A DNA stretch of 23,588 bases from the UHGV virus genome UHGV-1382276. One strand, given 5' to 3'. Below the pieces are notes generated by a model that ran no database searches, was not told where the DNA came from, and saw only the letters and a program-made list of their open reading frames with translations. Shown here piece by piece: positions 1 through 23,588 of the stretch. How positions within the stretch are numbered: position 1 is the first letter of the stretch; every line of letters begins with the position of its first letter. The stretch comes from a virus. The position numbers and the translations under genes were made by a program.

Positions 1-255
1 TAACGCGTCGCCGGAAGCCACGTCATAAACCGTTTTACCCCGATGATCTTCAACGAGATGCCACGATGACTCATCACTGTTGAAAACAGCCACGAAACCA
101 GCCGGAATATCTGGCGGTGCAATATAGGTACTGTTTGCAGGCAGACCTGTATGAGGCGGAATATATGCGTCACCTTCACCAATAAATTCATTAGTTCCGG
201 CCAGCAGATTATAAATTTTTATGGTCCGTGGTTGTTCACTCATTCTGAATGCCAT
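1..255 (-). CDS. tfa: Tail fiber assembly protein Tfa, N-terminal 85 codons only; the rest of the gene lies beyond the window start
   Basis: Reverse-complement translation of 255..1 gives [85 protein letters not shown], which I recognise as the N-terminus of lambda Tfa. The ATG (255..253) overlaps the stf stop (TAATG). Absent from the ORF track because it is truncated by the window edge. Confidence 0.85.
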
Positions 256-3200
256 TATGCAAGCCTCACAATATAGTTAACGGTGATGGTATGTCCATGT
301 GAACCAATCGCAACGGAGTGCGTATGAGCACCAATACCGACAGTATGTGCGTGTGCACCTGCGCTTGCAGCAGTACCCGATACAGAGTGCGTATGAGCGC
401 CTGCAGAAGAAGTGTTAACACTGTATTTAGAATAATCAGGTGATCCACTTCCCGGAGCACCACTGGAACCACCTGAAACAAATGTCATCGAATGGGTATG
501 TGCACCGGCTGAAGCAGCCGTACCGCTAACACTATGGGTATGCGCACCAGTGTTATTCGTGGATTTAGTGCCGTAATCAAACGACGATGTGGTTTTCGTC
601 CCCAAATCAGTACTGGATGCGCTGGCGCTGTGGGTATGCGATTTTATGCCGTCCTGTTCCTGAGACAATACGGCACGACCACTGGCGGGCTTGCCCTTAA
701 TCGTCCAGCCACGCATATCAGGGATCACGCCTGACGGATAAGCGGCTGCAAGTTTCGGGTAGGCAGATTTGTCAAAAGTCTGCCCCTGCATCAGGGCATA
801 ACCAGACGGAACGGTATCTGATGGCCACGGGATTGGTGCGCCGATTGGGTAGCTTTCTGGTGGAAGATTTTTCGAGGTATAAACTTCTGCCCAGTCTTCC
901 TCAAAACCATAACCGTCTCTTGAAGAACGGTAGAACAGACCACCATTTCTGTAATGCGCCTTCATCTGCAGGGTCCGGCAACTTCCGACTCCGGTATAGA
1001 AGTTAACCAGAATATAGCTGTCGCCAGAGCGGGTGACATTATAAGCGCCTGATTCGGCATTCCAGGGAACGCCACCATCCGCATCGGCATATGTATCCGT
1101 TGCCCTTCTGGCAAAAGCAGCCACATGCGCGGCGGTTAAAGTAATATCTTTGGAACCATCAAACTCAACACCAGAAACCCGTCTTGGCGTTTGCAGCTTT
1201 GTTTCTGTTAATGCATTACCGTTCAGACTTGCGGACAGTTTGGTTCCAATAACCAGTTCGCCAGTTGCGTTATCAATAGCAAACGGTCTTAATGTATTCC
1301 AGCCACCATAAACATCACCTTGATTGGTAAGCAGCAGGTAAGTTTTAGCGCCATCATTACGCCATAATGCCCCATACTCCCCACCTATCATTCGAATCTG
1401 ATTACCACCACGCGCTACAATTTCGTCTGTGGCAAAAAGTTTTTTGCACGACAAATTATCGTTAACGATTAACGAATGAGACTCATAAAAACCACGCCCA
1501 CTCTTAAAATCAAGGATAACGTCCGCCGCGATACATTCAGTCGCTGGATTTGTTGCCCCAAACTTATAGGTCGTATCATTAACAACGAGATCAGCACCAG
1601 GTGCGGATATTGACAGGCCATCTTCGATAAACGCAAAAACAGGGAAAGCAGCGCCATCAACATAGAACACAGAGCGCAAATCATCGCCCTTATTACTCAT
1701 CATTATTGAGTGGATGGCTCGTTCATTGTTTTGATATTGCCAGAACATTCCATAAGCATAACGCCCCCTGTCAGTCCAGCCACCAGGCATAACAAATCCG
1801 TTAAACTCGCAGTTATTCATCGGATCGCCTGCGGTTCGCGTTGCCGTGGTGATAATGACCCTTGATGCCAGTTCGCTTACTGAGCCAGCAGAACGCATAA
1901 CAACAACAGGGTAATATTTTCCAGATGTTGCACCTGCAGGAGCGTTAACCCGCACATAACGCATACCACGCTTATCAGCAAAGTCTGTTTTACTGACCGC
2001 GTTAATGTTGTTCAGGAAGCGTCCCTTATCGGGTATATCAGCGCCGTTCTGGTCTTTCTGCAGACGTTTCTCTGCATTGTCATAGGCTGATTTTACTGCC
2101 TTTGGCGTTGCCGCCAGCGTTTCAGACGTACTGTTGGTCGCACTGCTGAGCTGTACTATCCCCTTTTTCGTCGTGCTCGCATCCTCAAGCGCCACGGCGG
2201 ATGCAATATCCTCTGCCCGTTTTGCCGCTGTCTCGGCGCGCGTTGCCGCGGATTCCGCCGTACTTTTGCTCTGTGCTGCCGCCGTCGCACTGCCAGCTGC
2301 CTCTGTCGCCTTCGTGGATGCTGTCGTGGCGCTGCCCTTCGCTGCTGACGCCTGTCTGGTCGCCTCATCTTTTGAAGCAGACGCCGATGATGCCGATGAC
2401 GCCGCCGAACTGGCTGACGATGCGGCAGCCGTTTTTGAGGATTCTGCGCTGGTTTCCGACGCTTTCGCGTTCGTTTCGGATGTCTTCGCTGCGGAAGCAG
2501 AACTCGCTGCTGCGCTGGCCTGTTCAGTGGCTTCGCCAGCCTTCGTTGTGGCTGTTGAAGCGGATGATGCGGCGCTTTCTGCCGATTTTCCGGCGGCGGT
2601 GGCACTGGCTGAGGCCTGCCCGGCACTTGTTGACGCGGCGCTGGCAGATGATGCAGCCGCTGTTTTTGAGCCTGCCGCAGCTGAGGCGCTCTGTCCCGCT
2701 GCCGTCTCAGAAGACTTAGCGTTCGTCTCGGACGTTTTTGCCGCCTTCGCGGAATTTCCTGCCGCCGTTGCCGAGGAAGTTGCGCTACTGGCGCTCGAGG
2801 ATGCGTTCGTTTCTGATGATTTCGCTGCCTCTTTTGAGGCCGCCGCATCCCGGGCTGAGGTGGCAGCTTCTGACGCTTTCGTGGTCGCGGTGGATGCAGA
2901 AGTGGCTGCTGATTGTTGTGACGCTGCGGCATTCGTTTCTGACGTTTTCGCGGCACTGGCACTGGTAGCTGCCGCGCTTTTTGAGGACTCTGCAGCAGCA
3001 GCACTTTTCGATGCTTCAGTGGCCTTTGTTGATGCCGTTCCTGCGCTGGAAGACGCTGACTGAGCCGACGTCGCGGCCTGCCCGGCTGATGTGCTGGCTG
3101 CGCGTGCTGAGCCTGCAGCATCAGTCGCATGGGTTGCCGCCTCACGGGCTGATGTGCTGGCATCACTGGCTGACTTCTTCGCGGCTGCCGTGTTCTGTGC

Positions 3201-3560
3201 CACCACGGACGCGTTACGCGCCACCTCTTCCACCATCAGCTCAAAACGGCGCAGTGCCTCCGGACGGGCATCATCCTCCGTCATGGCACCGAGAAAATCA
3301 TTCAGCGTACCGGGTCGGGAATCTTCATACACGGTGATGGTCCCGGCATGTGACGGCGGGAATCCTTCCACCAACAGAATAACGCTGTACTGACCGTACT
3401 CAACGTCCATGCTGTAACGCCCGGCTTCATCCGGATTTTCTGAGGCCAGCGTGTTCACCACCACCGTGGTGCTGTTACGTTTTGCTTTCAGCTGGATTGT
3501 GCAGTTCTGTACCGGTTTTCCTGTGCCGTCTTTCAGTACACCTGAAATCTTTACTGCCAT
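255..3560 (-). CDS. stf: Side tail fiber protein, intact, 1101 aa; lambda-like N-terminus and C-terminus with an expanded and partly replaced middle
   Basis: ORF track 255..3566. The N-terminal ~120 aa ([35 protein letters not shown]...) and the C-terminal ~200 aa (GAPIPWPSD...KSHTHSASA...[16 protein letters not shown]) match lambda Stf as I recall it. I place the start at the ATG 3560..3558, preceded by GGGGTG, rather than the GTG at 3566 used by the ORF track. Confidence 0.9.
2202..3209 (-). repeat. Ala/Ser/Thr-rich low-complexity coding repeat forming the stf shaft, with a recurring AAKTSETNA unit
   Basis: stf residues ~120-455 are almost entirely A/S/T/K/E with quasi-periodic units. AAKTSETNA recurs three times at ~71-83 aa spacing, and the DNA shows matching near-repeats around 2461-2490, 2711-2745 and 2930-2950. 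The plus-strand ORFs in this interval are shadows of this region. Confidence 0.7.
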
Positions 3561-3571
3561 ATTCACCCCAC

Positions 3572-3598
3572 AAAAAAGCCCGCCTGAACCGGCGGGCT
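3572..3598 (-). terminator. Rho-independent terminator candidate downstream of lom
   Basis: Perfect 8-bp inverted repeat agcccgcc (3577..3584) / ggcgggct (3591..3598) with a 6-nt loop. The plus-strand A6 run at 3572..3577 gives a U-tract immediately 3' of the hairpin on the minus-strand transcript. It sits between the lom stop (3625) and the stf start (3560). Confidence 0.55.
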
Positions 3599-3624: not shown

Positions 3625-4224
3625 TCAGAATTTATAACCGACACCCACGATGAAACCGTCAGTGCGCCAGTCGCCACTGCCGGAGCCTTCATAAGCAATA
3701 TCAATGGCCACGGATTCGGTCGGGTTAAACTGCACGCCAGCCCCCCACGCCAGAGACGTGTTGCTGTGGCGACCGTCATCACTTCCGGTCAGCACATCGT
3801 GCGTTTTCCCCTTGTTGTCAGTTACGCGGAGATAATCCCCGAAGAAAGTCGACACACGGCTGTAAGCCACACCCGCCATCGCATACACGCTGAACCATTC
3901 ATTCACGCGCACAGACGGCCCCGCCATTACGCTGAACCAGCGGTTACGAACGGAATCTTCATGCCAGCGGGTATCGCTGTAATGGGTCAGCTGGCGATTC
4001 TTGTCTCCTGCATAGCTGAATGACGTCACCATCCCCAGTGTGTCCGTAAACTCATAACGGTATTTCACGTTAATCCCGTTCAGATCATCGCTGCCGGGAA
4101 CGTTCGTCGAGGCATGAAGATACCCCGCGCTCAGCGTGGACTGATGTTCAGACGCCCATGCAGACGCACCGGATACGACCTGCCAGACTACTGCGGACAA
4201 AATAACAGCACATAATTTACGCAT
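3625..4224 (-). CDS. lom: Lom-like outer membrane beta-barrel protein (Ail/Lom/PagC family), 199 aa
   Basis: ORF track. Has an N-terminal signal-peptide-like segment (MRKLCAVILSAVVWQVVSGASAWA), a C-terminal ...AYEGSGSGDWRTDGFIVGVGYKF ending in aromatic Phe as in lambda Lom, and GAGGT/GAGAGG 6 nt upstream of the ATG. Same position as lambda lom (between J and stf) but the N-terminal two-thirds is diverged and it is 7 aa shorter than the 206 aa I recall for lambda. Confidence 0.85.
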   Translation of the reverse strand: MRKLCAVILSAVVWQVVSGASAWASEHQSTLSAGYLHASTNVPGSDDLNGINVKYRYEFTDTLGMVTSFSYAGDKNRQLTHYSDTRWHEDSVRNRWFSVMAGPSVRVNEWFSVYAMAGVAYSRVSTFFGDYLRVTDNKGKTHDVLTGSDDGRHSNTSLAWGAGVQFNPTESVAIDIAYEGSGSGDWRTDGFIVGVGYKF

Positions 4225-4245: not shown

Positions 4246-4273
4246 AATAAAAAAGGCGCCATTTCTGGCGCCC
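4246..4273 (-). terminator. Rho-independent terminator candidate downstream of J
   Basis: Inverted repeat ggcgcca (4255..4261) / tggcgcc (4266..4272) with a 4-nt loop. On the minus-strand transcript the hairpin is followed by UUUUUUAUU (plus-strand A-run 4246..4254). It lies between the J stop (4292) and the lom start (4224). Confidence 0.55.
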
Positions 4274-4291: not shown

Positions 4292-7200
4292 TCAGCTAAT
4301 CGTGATGCCTGCAGTGGCTTTCTTCATCACCACAACCAGCAGATCGCTGATACTGGTTGTTGGTGTCCAGTTATTCGCTCCTGATGAAGATACGGTGAAT
4401 GTCAGTGTCAGTGTCCCCTGTCCGGCAGGCATATCTATAACTGAGGAAAATACGCCCTGAGCATCCGTCGTGGACTGATTAAAAATCTCCTGACCATTGC
4501 GGGTCACTCTTAACCGGCAGGTTGAATACCAGTATGACTGTTGGTTATTACTGTTGAAATTCTCATGCTTACCACCGCGGAATAACACTGGAGGTATCAT
4601 GACCTGCCGGTCAAACTTCTGATCATCACTGATTCTTACCGTGATGGTGCCACTGGCATAACTGTTCGTGCGGGGGAAAGACTTGCTGACCGTTTTGACA
4701 ATATCGCCTTCAATCTGATTGGCTGACAGTTTCCCCTTAATCTGACAGTTCTCATTAATCGTGACGTTGTTGAGCGTCCCGGAGTTCGCATTCACACTGC
4801 CACTGATATCCGCATTTTTAGCAGTCAGCTTTCCGTCCGGTGTCAGGGAAAATGCCGGTGGATTTCCACCGCTGGTAATGGTGGGGGCCGTCAGGCGTTT
4901 CAGGAACACGTCGTTCATGAATATCTGATCGCCCTGACCAACAAACATCGGTTTTGTGTTGCCATTCGCAGGATTAACCATCGCAATCCTGTCCGCCGCC
5001 AGCAGCACCTGACTCTGCATGCCGTCAGGGGTGTTCTCAATACCGGCACCAATACCCGCGATATAAAGGCGTCCGTCCTGCATCTGCTGCAGCTTCACAG
5101 CCCACATGCTGTTCAGGTTATTATTTGTATCAACCTGAACCTTCTGTATCTGCTGAATTGCCGCACTCTGGTCTTCCAGTTTCTTATTGACGGTCTGCGT
5201 GATTTCATTGCTGACATCCGTAATGGACGTCCTGATTTCAGCCAGGTCAGGCGCAAGCTGACCGTTATCAATCTGCGTCCACAGCTCCTGAGCCAGATGG
5301 CTTTTCCCTATCTCGCCTTTGAAAAAATCCAGATAGCCGGATGCATCATCACTCGGCTGACCAACAGCCTCCACGAATGCCGATTTGCCAACGGTGTTCA
5401 CACTGCGGATATAAAAGTAATAATCATGGCCCGGTTTGATATTGATACTGGCGGCTATCCAGTACATCCCCGTGCCAAGATAGCGCGCGCTGGTTTCAAC
5501 CTGCCTGATATCCGCAATCCGCTTTTCCGAGAACCAGAACTCAAACTGTACCGTCGGATCATAAACCGCAAGATGCGGCGTGGCGGTTATCTGAAAATAC
5601 CCCGGTGTCAGCTCAATCTGCGACGGCGCTGCCGGTGCGGCAATCCGGAACGATACCGATGCCGGATCGCCCTGCTGCCCCCACGCATTTACTGCCCGGA
5701 CTGTCAGCCTGTAGTTCCCCAGCGCCAGTTGTGTGAAGCGGTATGTGGTTTCCGCCGTCCGGGCTGTGCTGACCAGCCGCTCACTGCCGTCATCCGCTGC
5801 CACGGTCAGGCGAAGCATAAAGCTCACCCCCTTCACCACCTTCGGCGTGTCCCAGCGGGCCAGTACCTGATATTCCCCGCTGTCTGCGGTGACTTCGGCA
5901 GTCAGGTGCTGCACCGCTGGCGGCGTGACACCATTCACCGTGCCGCTCTGGTCGCCGTCAAAGTGCGCCCCGTTATCCACGATGGCCTCTTTTTCCGGTA
6001 CATGCTGCACGGCGGTGATGGCATACATACCGTCGTCGTTCTCACGGATACTCACGCAGCGGAACAGGCGCTGGCGCAGCGTCGGCAGCTTCAGCCCCCA
6101 CACGCTGTATCCGGCAACGCCGTCAGGAACACGGCTCACTTTTACCTTCACGCCGTCGGTGACGGACTGGACCTCCACGCTGACCGGATTGCCACTTCCG
6201 TCAACCAGGCTTATCAGCGTGGTACCGGAGGATGGCAGCGTGATTTCACGGTCGAGCGTCAGCGTCCGGGTCTGGCTGTTCACCGCCAGCACGCGCCCGC
6301 CGGTGCGGATACCGGCATAGTCATCATCGCAGATTTCAATGACATCGCCCGGCACATGGCGAAGCCCTTCTGCGCCCACGCTGAAATCCACGGTCTGTGT
6401 TTCCAGCAGTTCTGTTTTAATCAGCCACAGCCCGGCGCGATGTGCCTGCCCCCGGCTGGTACAGCCAAAGGCATCCATCTTCGTGACGTTACGACCGTAA
6501 CGGGCAATGGCCTGCGTGTCCTCCACAAGCTCTGTCGCCGTCTCCCAGCCGTTATTCGGGTCAATCCAGTTCACCTCAACGGCATTATGGCGGTCCTTCA
6601 GGGCGCTGAAGCTGTAGCGGAACGGCGCGCCATCATCCGGCATCACCACATTACTGCGGTTATAGGTCCACACCTTATCTGATGGTCGGTCCTGCACGAA
6701 CGTCAGCGTCTGCCCGTTCCATACCGGCATACAGCGCATCGCCGAGCAGAAATCACTGAGCACATCCCACGCCTTGCGCTGTGTGGTCAGGTACGCATTA
6801 CAGATGATGCGCGGCTCCGTGCCGCCAAAGCCGTCCGGCACTGACTGGTCGCAGTACTGGCCGATGACATACAGCGCCCATTTATCCACATCCGCCGCAC
6901 CAAGACGTTTCCCCATGCCGTAGCGCGGATGGGTCAGCATATCCCACAGACACCAGGCCATGTTGTTGCTGTATGCCGGTTTAAACGTTCCGTCCCAGAT
7001 ACCGCTGTATTGCCGCGTCTGCGGGTTATAGTTCGACGGCACCTGCAGAATGCGCCCGCGCAGATGATAATTACGGCTCACCTGCTGGCTGCCGAACTGC
7101 TCCGAATCCACCTGCACGCCGACCAGTGCCGTGTTCGGGTAGCCCTGTTTCACATCGATGATTTCGGTGTATGACGACCAGAGCGTTTTGTTCTGCAGCT

Positions 7201-7774
7201 GGTCTGTGGTGCTGTCCGGCGTCATCCTGCGCATCCGGATATTGAACGGGCGCGGCGGCAGGTTACCCACCACCACCGAGGCCAGATACTGCGAGGTGGT
7301 TTTGCCCTTAATGGTGATGTCTTTTTCCGTCACCCAGCCACCATTACGCTGTATCTGAACCAGCAGGCGAACTTCCGACGGATTCCGGTCCCCCTTTGAG
7401 GTGGTTTCCACCAGTGCCTGCACGCCGAAGGTAAAACGCAGTCGGTCAATGTTTGCCGACGTGATGGTCCGGGTGATCGGCGTGTCGTATTTCACTTCCG
7501 TACCCAGCACCGTCTCGGAGCCGGAGGATTCAAATCCCTCCGGCGGTGTCTGCTCCTGCTCACCGGCCCGGAACACCACCGTGACGCCGGAGATATTGGT
7601 ATTCCCCTCACTGTCCAGCACTGGCGTACTGTTCAGCAGCACGCTTTTTAATCCATCCACCGGACCTTCAACCGGCCCTTCGCTGATGGCATCGATCACA
7701 CTCAGCAACTGCGTGGACTTCAGGTTGTCCTTCGCTTCGCGCGGGGTATGCCCCTTACTGCTGCCTTTACCCAT
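4292..7774 (-). CDS. J: Tail tip central fiber / host specificity protein J, 1160 aa
   Basis: ORF track. The N-terminal ~800 aa ([34 protein letters not shown]...) match lambda J. The C-terminal ~350 aa diverge from what I recall of lambda J and are 28 aa longer than lambda's 1132. Confidence 0.93.
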
Positions 7775-17196: not shown

Positions 17197-17529
17197 TTAA
17201 ACGATGCTGATTGCCGTTCCGGCAAACGCGGTCCGTTTTTTCGTCTCGTCGCTGGCAGCCTCCGGCCAGAGCACATCCTCATAACGGAACGTGCCGGACT
17301 TGTAGAACGTCAGTGTGGTGCTGGTCTGGTCAGCAGCAACTGCAAGAATGCCAACGGCAGCACCGTCGGTGGTGCCATCCCACGCAACCAGCTTACGGGT
17401 GGAGGTGTCCAGCATCAGCGGGGTCATTGCAGGCGCTTTCGCACTCAACCCGCCGGGCGCGGTTGCGGTATGAGCCGGGTCACTGTTGCCCAGCGGCTGG
17501 TAATGGGTAAAGGTTTCTTTGCTCGTCAT
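17197..17529 (-). CDS. D: Capsid decoration protein D, 110 aa
   Basis: The ORF track ORF (17197..17535) reads [14 protein letters not shown].... The second ATG (17529..17527) gives the 110-aa lambda gpD and has AGGGA 5 nt upstream. Confidence 0.9.
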
Positions 17530-17538
17530 AAACATCCC

Positions 17539-23262: not shown

Positions 23263-23274
23263 AGGTCGCCGCCC
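23263..23274 (-). other. cosN, the 12-nt cohesive-end sequence (GGGCGGCGACCT on the minus strand)
   Basis: Window 23263..23274 is aggtcgccgccc, the reverse complement of the lambda 5' cohesive end. It is flanked by lambda left-end sequence on the low-coordinate side and right-end sequence (cgtaacctgtcggatc...) on the high side. Confidence 0.85.
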
Positions 23275-23312: not shown

Positions 23313-23588
23313 ATAATAATTATCATCTGCATGTCACAACGTGCATCTACGCCATCAAACCACGTCAAATAATCAATTATGACGCAGGTATCGTATTAAT
23401 TGATCTGCATCAACTTAACGTAAAAACAACTTCAGACAATACAAATCAGCGACACTGAATACGGGACAACCTCATGTCAACGAAGAACAGCAATGCAAGA
23501 CTTATAGAGCAACGAATGGTTGCAACGACATAACACCACATTATTATAATTTAGGCGGAGCGATGAAAATTCGTTCCGCCACTTTCTT

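Follow-up and report, generated by a model that had tools for sequence, protein, structure and literature searches.

A mosaic-like J protein in a lambdoid prophage carries a predicted OmpC-type receptor-binding domain

The DNA analyzed here (the window, 23,588 nt) carries an intact J gene within a lambda-like prophage. We consider it highly likely that the C-terminal third of the J protein was built by recombination and that its receptor-binding domain (RBD) binds OmpC rather than LamB. OmpC is put forward as the probable receptor because the RBD is nearly identical to proteins whose receptor has been tested, and not because of the family to which it belongs. Since few changes can shift the receptor within this RBD family, the assignment rests on relatives that are 98 to 99% identical.

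The window covers the late region of a lambdoid prophage, with genes for the small terminase subunit at one end and the side tail fiber at the other. It is 97.6% identical to phage Chlobot, which was submitted to the databases as a phage genome and lists E. coli as its host, and 99.7% identical to a prophage that adjoins the bio operon in E. coli ST12468. The exact lambda cos cohesive-end sequence, GGGCGGCGACCT, lies at 23263-23274 on the minus strand, 178 nt upstream of the small terminase gene, and because cos is internal the window reads through it, as a prophage or a circular form would. In every close relative the match stops at 23490, and the last 98 nt (23490-23588) differ from them. 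In the ST12468 prophage, the annotation marks the head decoration gene (L007 23241-23573) as a pseudogene interrupted by an internal stop, while its counterpart in the window, at 17197-17535 on the minus strand, is an intact open reading frame (ORF) of 112 aa. ST12468 also has a gene for a sensor-domain diguanylate cyclase (L007 4266-5597, outside the window) between chromosomal ybhB and the prophage tail fiber assembly gene, which the prophage may carry as cargo at the end with the attachment site.

Gene J, encoding the tip attachment or central tail fiber protein, occupies positions 4292..7774 on the minus strand and, according to the ORF list and its translation, specifies 1160 aa plus a stop codon. 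It is the only long minus-strand ORF at the locus, and it follows the tape-measure gene and homologues of M, L, K, and I and precedes lom and stf, in agreement with the annotated gene order in lambda, 21, Chlobot, and E. coli ST12468. At the nucleotide level, J is 97.8% identical to J of Chlobot and 93.1% identical to J of phage 21, and it is full-length, equal in length to both; the protein differs from that of Chlobot at 21 of 1160 residues. Pfam recovered all six domains of a lambda-type J above the cut-offs and in the expected order (FNIII-A_GpJ, Phage-tail_3, Ig_J, Ig_J_second, Phage_Tail_Tip, and Ig_GpJ_C), with Phage_Tail_Tip at aa 872-1000 and Ig_GpJ_C at aa 1036-1160, and a PDB sequence search matched the protein to lambda gpJ (8iyk) with E = 0. 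An ORF of 461 aa lies antisense to J at 5297-6682 on the plus strand but had no support as a gene. In coding DNA rich in GC, antisense ORFs of such length are to be expected.

The original prediction held that the first ~807 residues of this protein match lambda J and that the C-terminal region differs from it and is 28 residues longer. Alignment agrees on each point. Lambda J (NC_001416) has 1132 aa, 28 fewer than the window protein; 780 of the first 800 residues are identical (97.5%), and the match collapses from residue 808, so that the interval singled out earlier, 4292-5353, spans exactly aa 808-1160 plus the stop codon. Downstream, over aa 801-1160, identity falls to 187 of 327 aligned columns, with 38 further gap columns. 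The sequence had also been described as patchy from about residue 808 onward, which fits these figures but not aa 951-1000, where all 50 residues are identical to lambda; the divergence is therefore non-uniform. A MAFFT alignment traced the whole net gain of 28 aa to an insertion of 21 aa that follows lambda residue 835 and one of 7 aa that follows lambda residue 838. Within the RBD, the same alignment placed indels of -4 at lambda 1011, +5 near 1053, and -1 near 1103, and because these sum to zero the additional 28 aa sit entirely in the shaft. Natural J homologues have four indel hot spots, at lambda residues 1012, 1048-1049, 1077-1078, and 1107 (Maddamsetti et al., PMC6646904). The indels of the window RBD fall at or near three of them (1012, 1048-1049, and 1107), and the list of indels relative to lambda holds none at the fourth, 1077-1078. 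The last 160 aa match lambda at 71 of 154 positions by MAFFT (43.3% by tblastn), and the RBD as a whole (aa ~991-1160) is 43-46% identical to its lambda counterpart. This excludes near-identity to lambda over the final ~150 aa, and, judged against the sequence and loop lengths of the lambda specificity region (lambda residues 960-1132), the protein does not have a lambda-type, LamB-binding RBD.

To locate these changes, nucleotide identity was mapped in 90-nt bins against lambda, 21, 434, Chlobot, and phi330, and the resulting pattern shows the C-terminal third of J to be a recombination mosaic. The conserved N-terminal module (aa 1-810; 5345..7774, minus strand), made up of the hub domains and two FNIII/Ig domains, is 87-100% identical to lambda, 21, and 434. 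A phage 21-type segment follows (aa 811-960; 4895..5344, minus strand), comprising the helical shaft and the upper straight fiber. It is 92-99% identical to phage 21 but only 51-77% identical to lambda and 434, and it aligns with phage 21 without gaps, as a long shaft of the 21 type. This segment includes the insertion stretch (aa 836-866; 5177..5269, minus strand), in which MAFFT separated the 21 aa and 7 aa by three residues that align with lambda; phages 21 and Chlobot have the inserted segment as well, and phi330 has a diverged form of it. Domain names here follow the structural study of lambda gpJ, in which the alpha-helical shaft comprises lambda residues 809-861 (PMC11101478). Both insertions fall within that range, placing the 28 aa in the helical shaft. 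An AlphaFold single-sequence model of aa 790-1160, with a low-confidence mean pLDDT of 45, had helices at aa 812-877 and a beta-rich C terminus but is too weak to build on. Although 28 equals 4 x 7, no register stood out in a count of heptad registers over aa 809-892, and we make no claim that a coiled-coil register is kept across the insertion.

Between the shaft segment and the RBD lies a conserved junction in the lower straight fiber (aa 961-990; 4805..4894, minus strand), with nucleotide identities of 94% to lambda, 91% to 434, 82% to 21, and 72% to phi330. This is likely the crossover zone. The engineered A8 chimera, described below, changes from lambda-type to donor-type sequence inside the same conserved zone, where the exact junction is unreadable. 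The final module (aa 991-1160; 4295..4804, minus strand) is of the A8/phi330 type in nucleotide and amino acid identity, carries the Pfam domain Ig_GpJ_C, and is the predicted OmpC binder. Across aa 991-1140, it is 98-99% identical at the nucleotide level to phi330, compared with 64-87% for phage 21 and 52-74% for lambda, and the last 63 nt of J are 89% identical to Chlobot and phi330. Since the J gene of phi330 is mostly 60-80% identical to the window outside the RBD, the RBD appears to have been exchanged as a unit, through crossovers located in the lower fiber, which is conserved.

Among the J proteins of known receptor compared here, the closest in the RBD were two that depend on OmpC, those of A8 and phi330. 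The last 160 aa of the window protein match the RBD of the A8 gpJ chimera (PDB 9wca/9wcb, "A8 gpJ 713") at 158 of 160 positions without indels, the exceptions being S1153A and S1158T (serine at both positions in A8, A1153 and T1158 in the window). According to the PDB sequence search, the C-terminal part of A8 equals the window protein from the lower fiber to the end except for these two residues, and the C-terminal tail that A1153 and T1158 produce also ends a second OmpC-using chimera, 1A2. A8 is a chimeric gpJ in which lambda gpJ was fused to the C terminus of a natural E. coli phage gpJ, as described by Brödel et al. (Nature 2024, PMC11338833). [quoted passage not shown] The A8 gpJ DNA in the supplement to that paper, despite its text-recognition gaps, aligns to window positions 4292-4951 at 94%, which indicates that the PDB protein is the published chimera and ties it to the natural allele of the window; in its DNA, the natural donor of A8 carried the allele found here. 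When the PDB was searched with OmpC of E. coli K-12, entry 9wcb proved to contain three OmpC chains, and it also lists A8 gpJ.

Evidence from a natural phage points the same way. The RBD of phi330 (Stx2a siphophage vB_EcoS_phi330, PV189401), which forms plaques, is identical to that of the window at 156 of 160 positions, again without indels. When 54 Keio outer-membrane knockouts were tried with phi330, lysis was blocked by the ompC knockout only, and complementation restored plaques (PMC12502783). Near-identity to both proteins places the window RBD in the A8/phi330 type, in which A8 and phi330 depend on OmpC. Of the two alternatives in the original prediction, a different outer-membrane receptor and a diverged LamB-binding surface, these comparisons favor the first, and that receptor would be OmpC. 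A literature search on Chlobot, PhiR70, mEp332, PhiR34, and 2H10, the closest relatives over the whole gene, found no receptor data, and a 2026 receptor-prediction preprint covers GpJ of Drexlerviridae, not lambda-type RBDs.

The OmpC dependence of phi330 could in principle come partly from side fibers, and in the window the side tail fiber gene stf is a second host-range determinant. It lies at 255..3560 on the minus strand, encoding ~1101 aa from a likely ATG at 3560 (the ORF, 255-3566, spans 1103 aa). Pfam domains in its product are phage_tail_N, Gp34_trimer, Collar, and Phage_fiber, with Gp34_trimer and Collar in the middle; identity to lambda proteins is 80% between the N terminus and orf-401 and 62% between the His-rich C terminus, which has GAHTHS repeats, and orf-314. 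GC content is 0.46 at 1001-2000 compared with 0.60 at 2001-3500, a drop that suggests a second mosaic junction. The side fiber of Ur-lambda is reported to bind OmpC (PMC11338833). Between stf and J lies lom (3625..4224, minus strand; Pfam Ail_Lom, E = 8e-120), which encodes an Ail/Lom outer-membrane protein of 199 aa that is 43% identical to lambda Lom. Phage 434 has an annotated Ail/PagC/OmpX gene of the same length, and phage 21 has no gene at this position. A consensus scan also found two terminator-like, GC-rich hairpins with T runs on the minus strand, one just downstream of J (4254..4273) and one after lom (3577-3598). Two such hairpins, with 0.8 expected in shuffled sequences, are not significant alone. 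The records of phages 21 and 434 annotate terminators at matching places.

The best surviving alternative, although quite improbable in our judgment, is that J is a generalist using OmpC together with a second porin, either LamB or OmpF. Phages of this kind have been evolved in the laboratory. The native receptor of phage 21 is LamB, and use of OmpC was acquired through the single change I1025T (PMC11336670, which is the source for this substitution, since the phage 21 coevolution preprint lists no residue-level changes); in evolved variants, only 1 to 4 changes in J suffice for the use of LamB, OmpC, and OmpF. Furthermore, the A8 assays used lamB-deleted recipients, and the accessible text of PMC11338833 contains none on LamB alone. 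I1025T is a change at the junction of the fiber and the RBD. The window, however, keeps I1025 and V1026, and the absence of the substitution that opened OmpC use in phage 21 speaks for a stable specialist and against a destabilized generalist. The failure of phi330 to lyse the single ompC knockout likewise indicates that neither LamB nor OmpF acted as a substitute there (PMC12502783).

Phage 21 is also the basis for the second alternative in the original prediction, namely, continued LamB binding by an RBD whose surface has diverged. The two RBDs are 80.6% identical (129 of 160 residues) with no indels between them, and they have a long loop and another segment in common. The 31 differences are clustered in aa 1030-1060 and aa 1087-1131. 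The window does not carry the 21-type, LamB-specific RBD, and the much closer A8 domain works via OmpC in lamB-deleted cells (PMC11338833). A deposited complex of A8 gpJ with OmpC (9wcb) and the failure of phi330 on an ompC knockout in which lamB is intact (PMC12502783) also argue against continued use of LamB, which we regard as very improbable. It is hardly credible that J belongs to a decaying prophage in which divergence from lambda is functionally meaningless, and we rejected this reading: the window is indeed prophage DNA with an internal cos site (23263-23274), and the head decoration gene of its 99.7% identical relative in ST12468 has an internal stop, but J is a full-length ORF as long as those of phages 21 and Chlobot, full-length ORFs, one of them gpD-sized, correspond gene by gene to the annotated late operon of ST12468, small terminase subunit through stf, and the divergence tracks domain boundaries, with 98-99% of nucleotides in common with plaque-forming phi330.

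If the RBD does bind OmpC, the functions of the J segments can be proposed by analogy with lambda gpJ bound to LamB, whose structures are the source of the triggering mechanism (PMC11101478). The N-terminal 810 residues form the tail-tip hub as in lambda, and aa 811-960 are the phage 21 version of the helical shaft and upper fiber, 28 residues longer than that of lambda. Beyond a short stretch conserved among lambdoid phages, the Ig-like RBD of the A8/phi330 type would insert its distal loops into the extracellular face of the trimeric porin OmpC. As in the solved mechanism of lambda and LamB, binding would then spread the three RBDs apart, twist the straight fiber, and flip the helical shaft, after which the tail tip would open for DNA ejection. 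We infer that the window phage uses OmpC and triggers tail opening as lambda does. A longer shaft might, for example, alter the reach of the central fiber or the threshold of the trigger. It is possible, although unlikely, that the pairing of a 21-type shaft with an OmpC-type RBD is functional rather than neutral and that the 31 substitutions represent a minimal natural switch from LamB to OmpC; such a switch could include some residual use of both receptors.

The RBD described here is a common natural allele that has already been characterized, engineered, used for DNA delivery in the gut, and solved structurally, and its biology is not new. Of 5426 complete E. coli genomes, 1576 contain the last 483 nt of J at an identity of at least 95%. 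At the protein level, 44 phage records match the corresponding 160 aa with 95-99% identity, and Stx1a- and Stx2a-converting phages are among them. The combination of alleles in aa 790-1160 is also common: among 120 matches listed in a homologue search with this region, all but three were E. coli fragments 98-99% identical to it, which yielded no diverse alignment. Because the receptor of a temperate phage decides which strains are lysogenized and which hosts its cargo reaches, it is relevant that the same RBD allele rides on Stx-converting phages. Recognizing an OmpC-type J allele would make both host range and the routes to resistance, such as loss or variation of ompC, predictable from sequence for many E. 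coli prophages.

Comparison with the known J proteins shows how the same parts are combined in different ways. A8 shares with the window its RBD and the preceding lower fiber, which is identical, but as an engineered fusion it keeps the shorter helical shaft and upper fiber of lambda in place of the longer 21-type shaft. In the J protein of phi330, the shaft is likewise of the long form, although outside the RBD its gene is only 53-97% identical to that of the window at the nucleotide level and is annotated as shorter (1042 aa); the phage itself, a member of another genus (Pankowvirus), carries stx2a. Phage 21 (OL657228) has a J of 1160 aa with the same architecture, including the 28-aa insertion within the 92-99% identical segment at aa 811-960, but differs in the RBD, which is 64-87% identical at the nucleotide level. 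Lambda (NC_001416; PDB 8iyk, 8xcj, and 8xck) resembles the window over aa 1-800, in aa 951-1000, and in the order of its Pfam domains, and the two proteins presumably have a trigger mechanism in common; its receptor is LamB, its shaft is shorter by 28 aa, and its RBD is separated from that of the window by indels. Finally, phage 434 (OL657226), a classical OmpC-using lambdoid phage (PMC11101478), has the same N-terminal module as the window joined to the short shaft of lambda. Its RBD is of a different sequence type, identical at 76 of 154 positions with several indels, and the window RBD is not of the 434 type. Judged by their alignment, the predicted OmpC-using RBD of the window and the OmpC-using RBD of 434 resemble each other no more than each resembles that of lambda.
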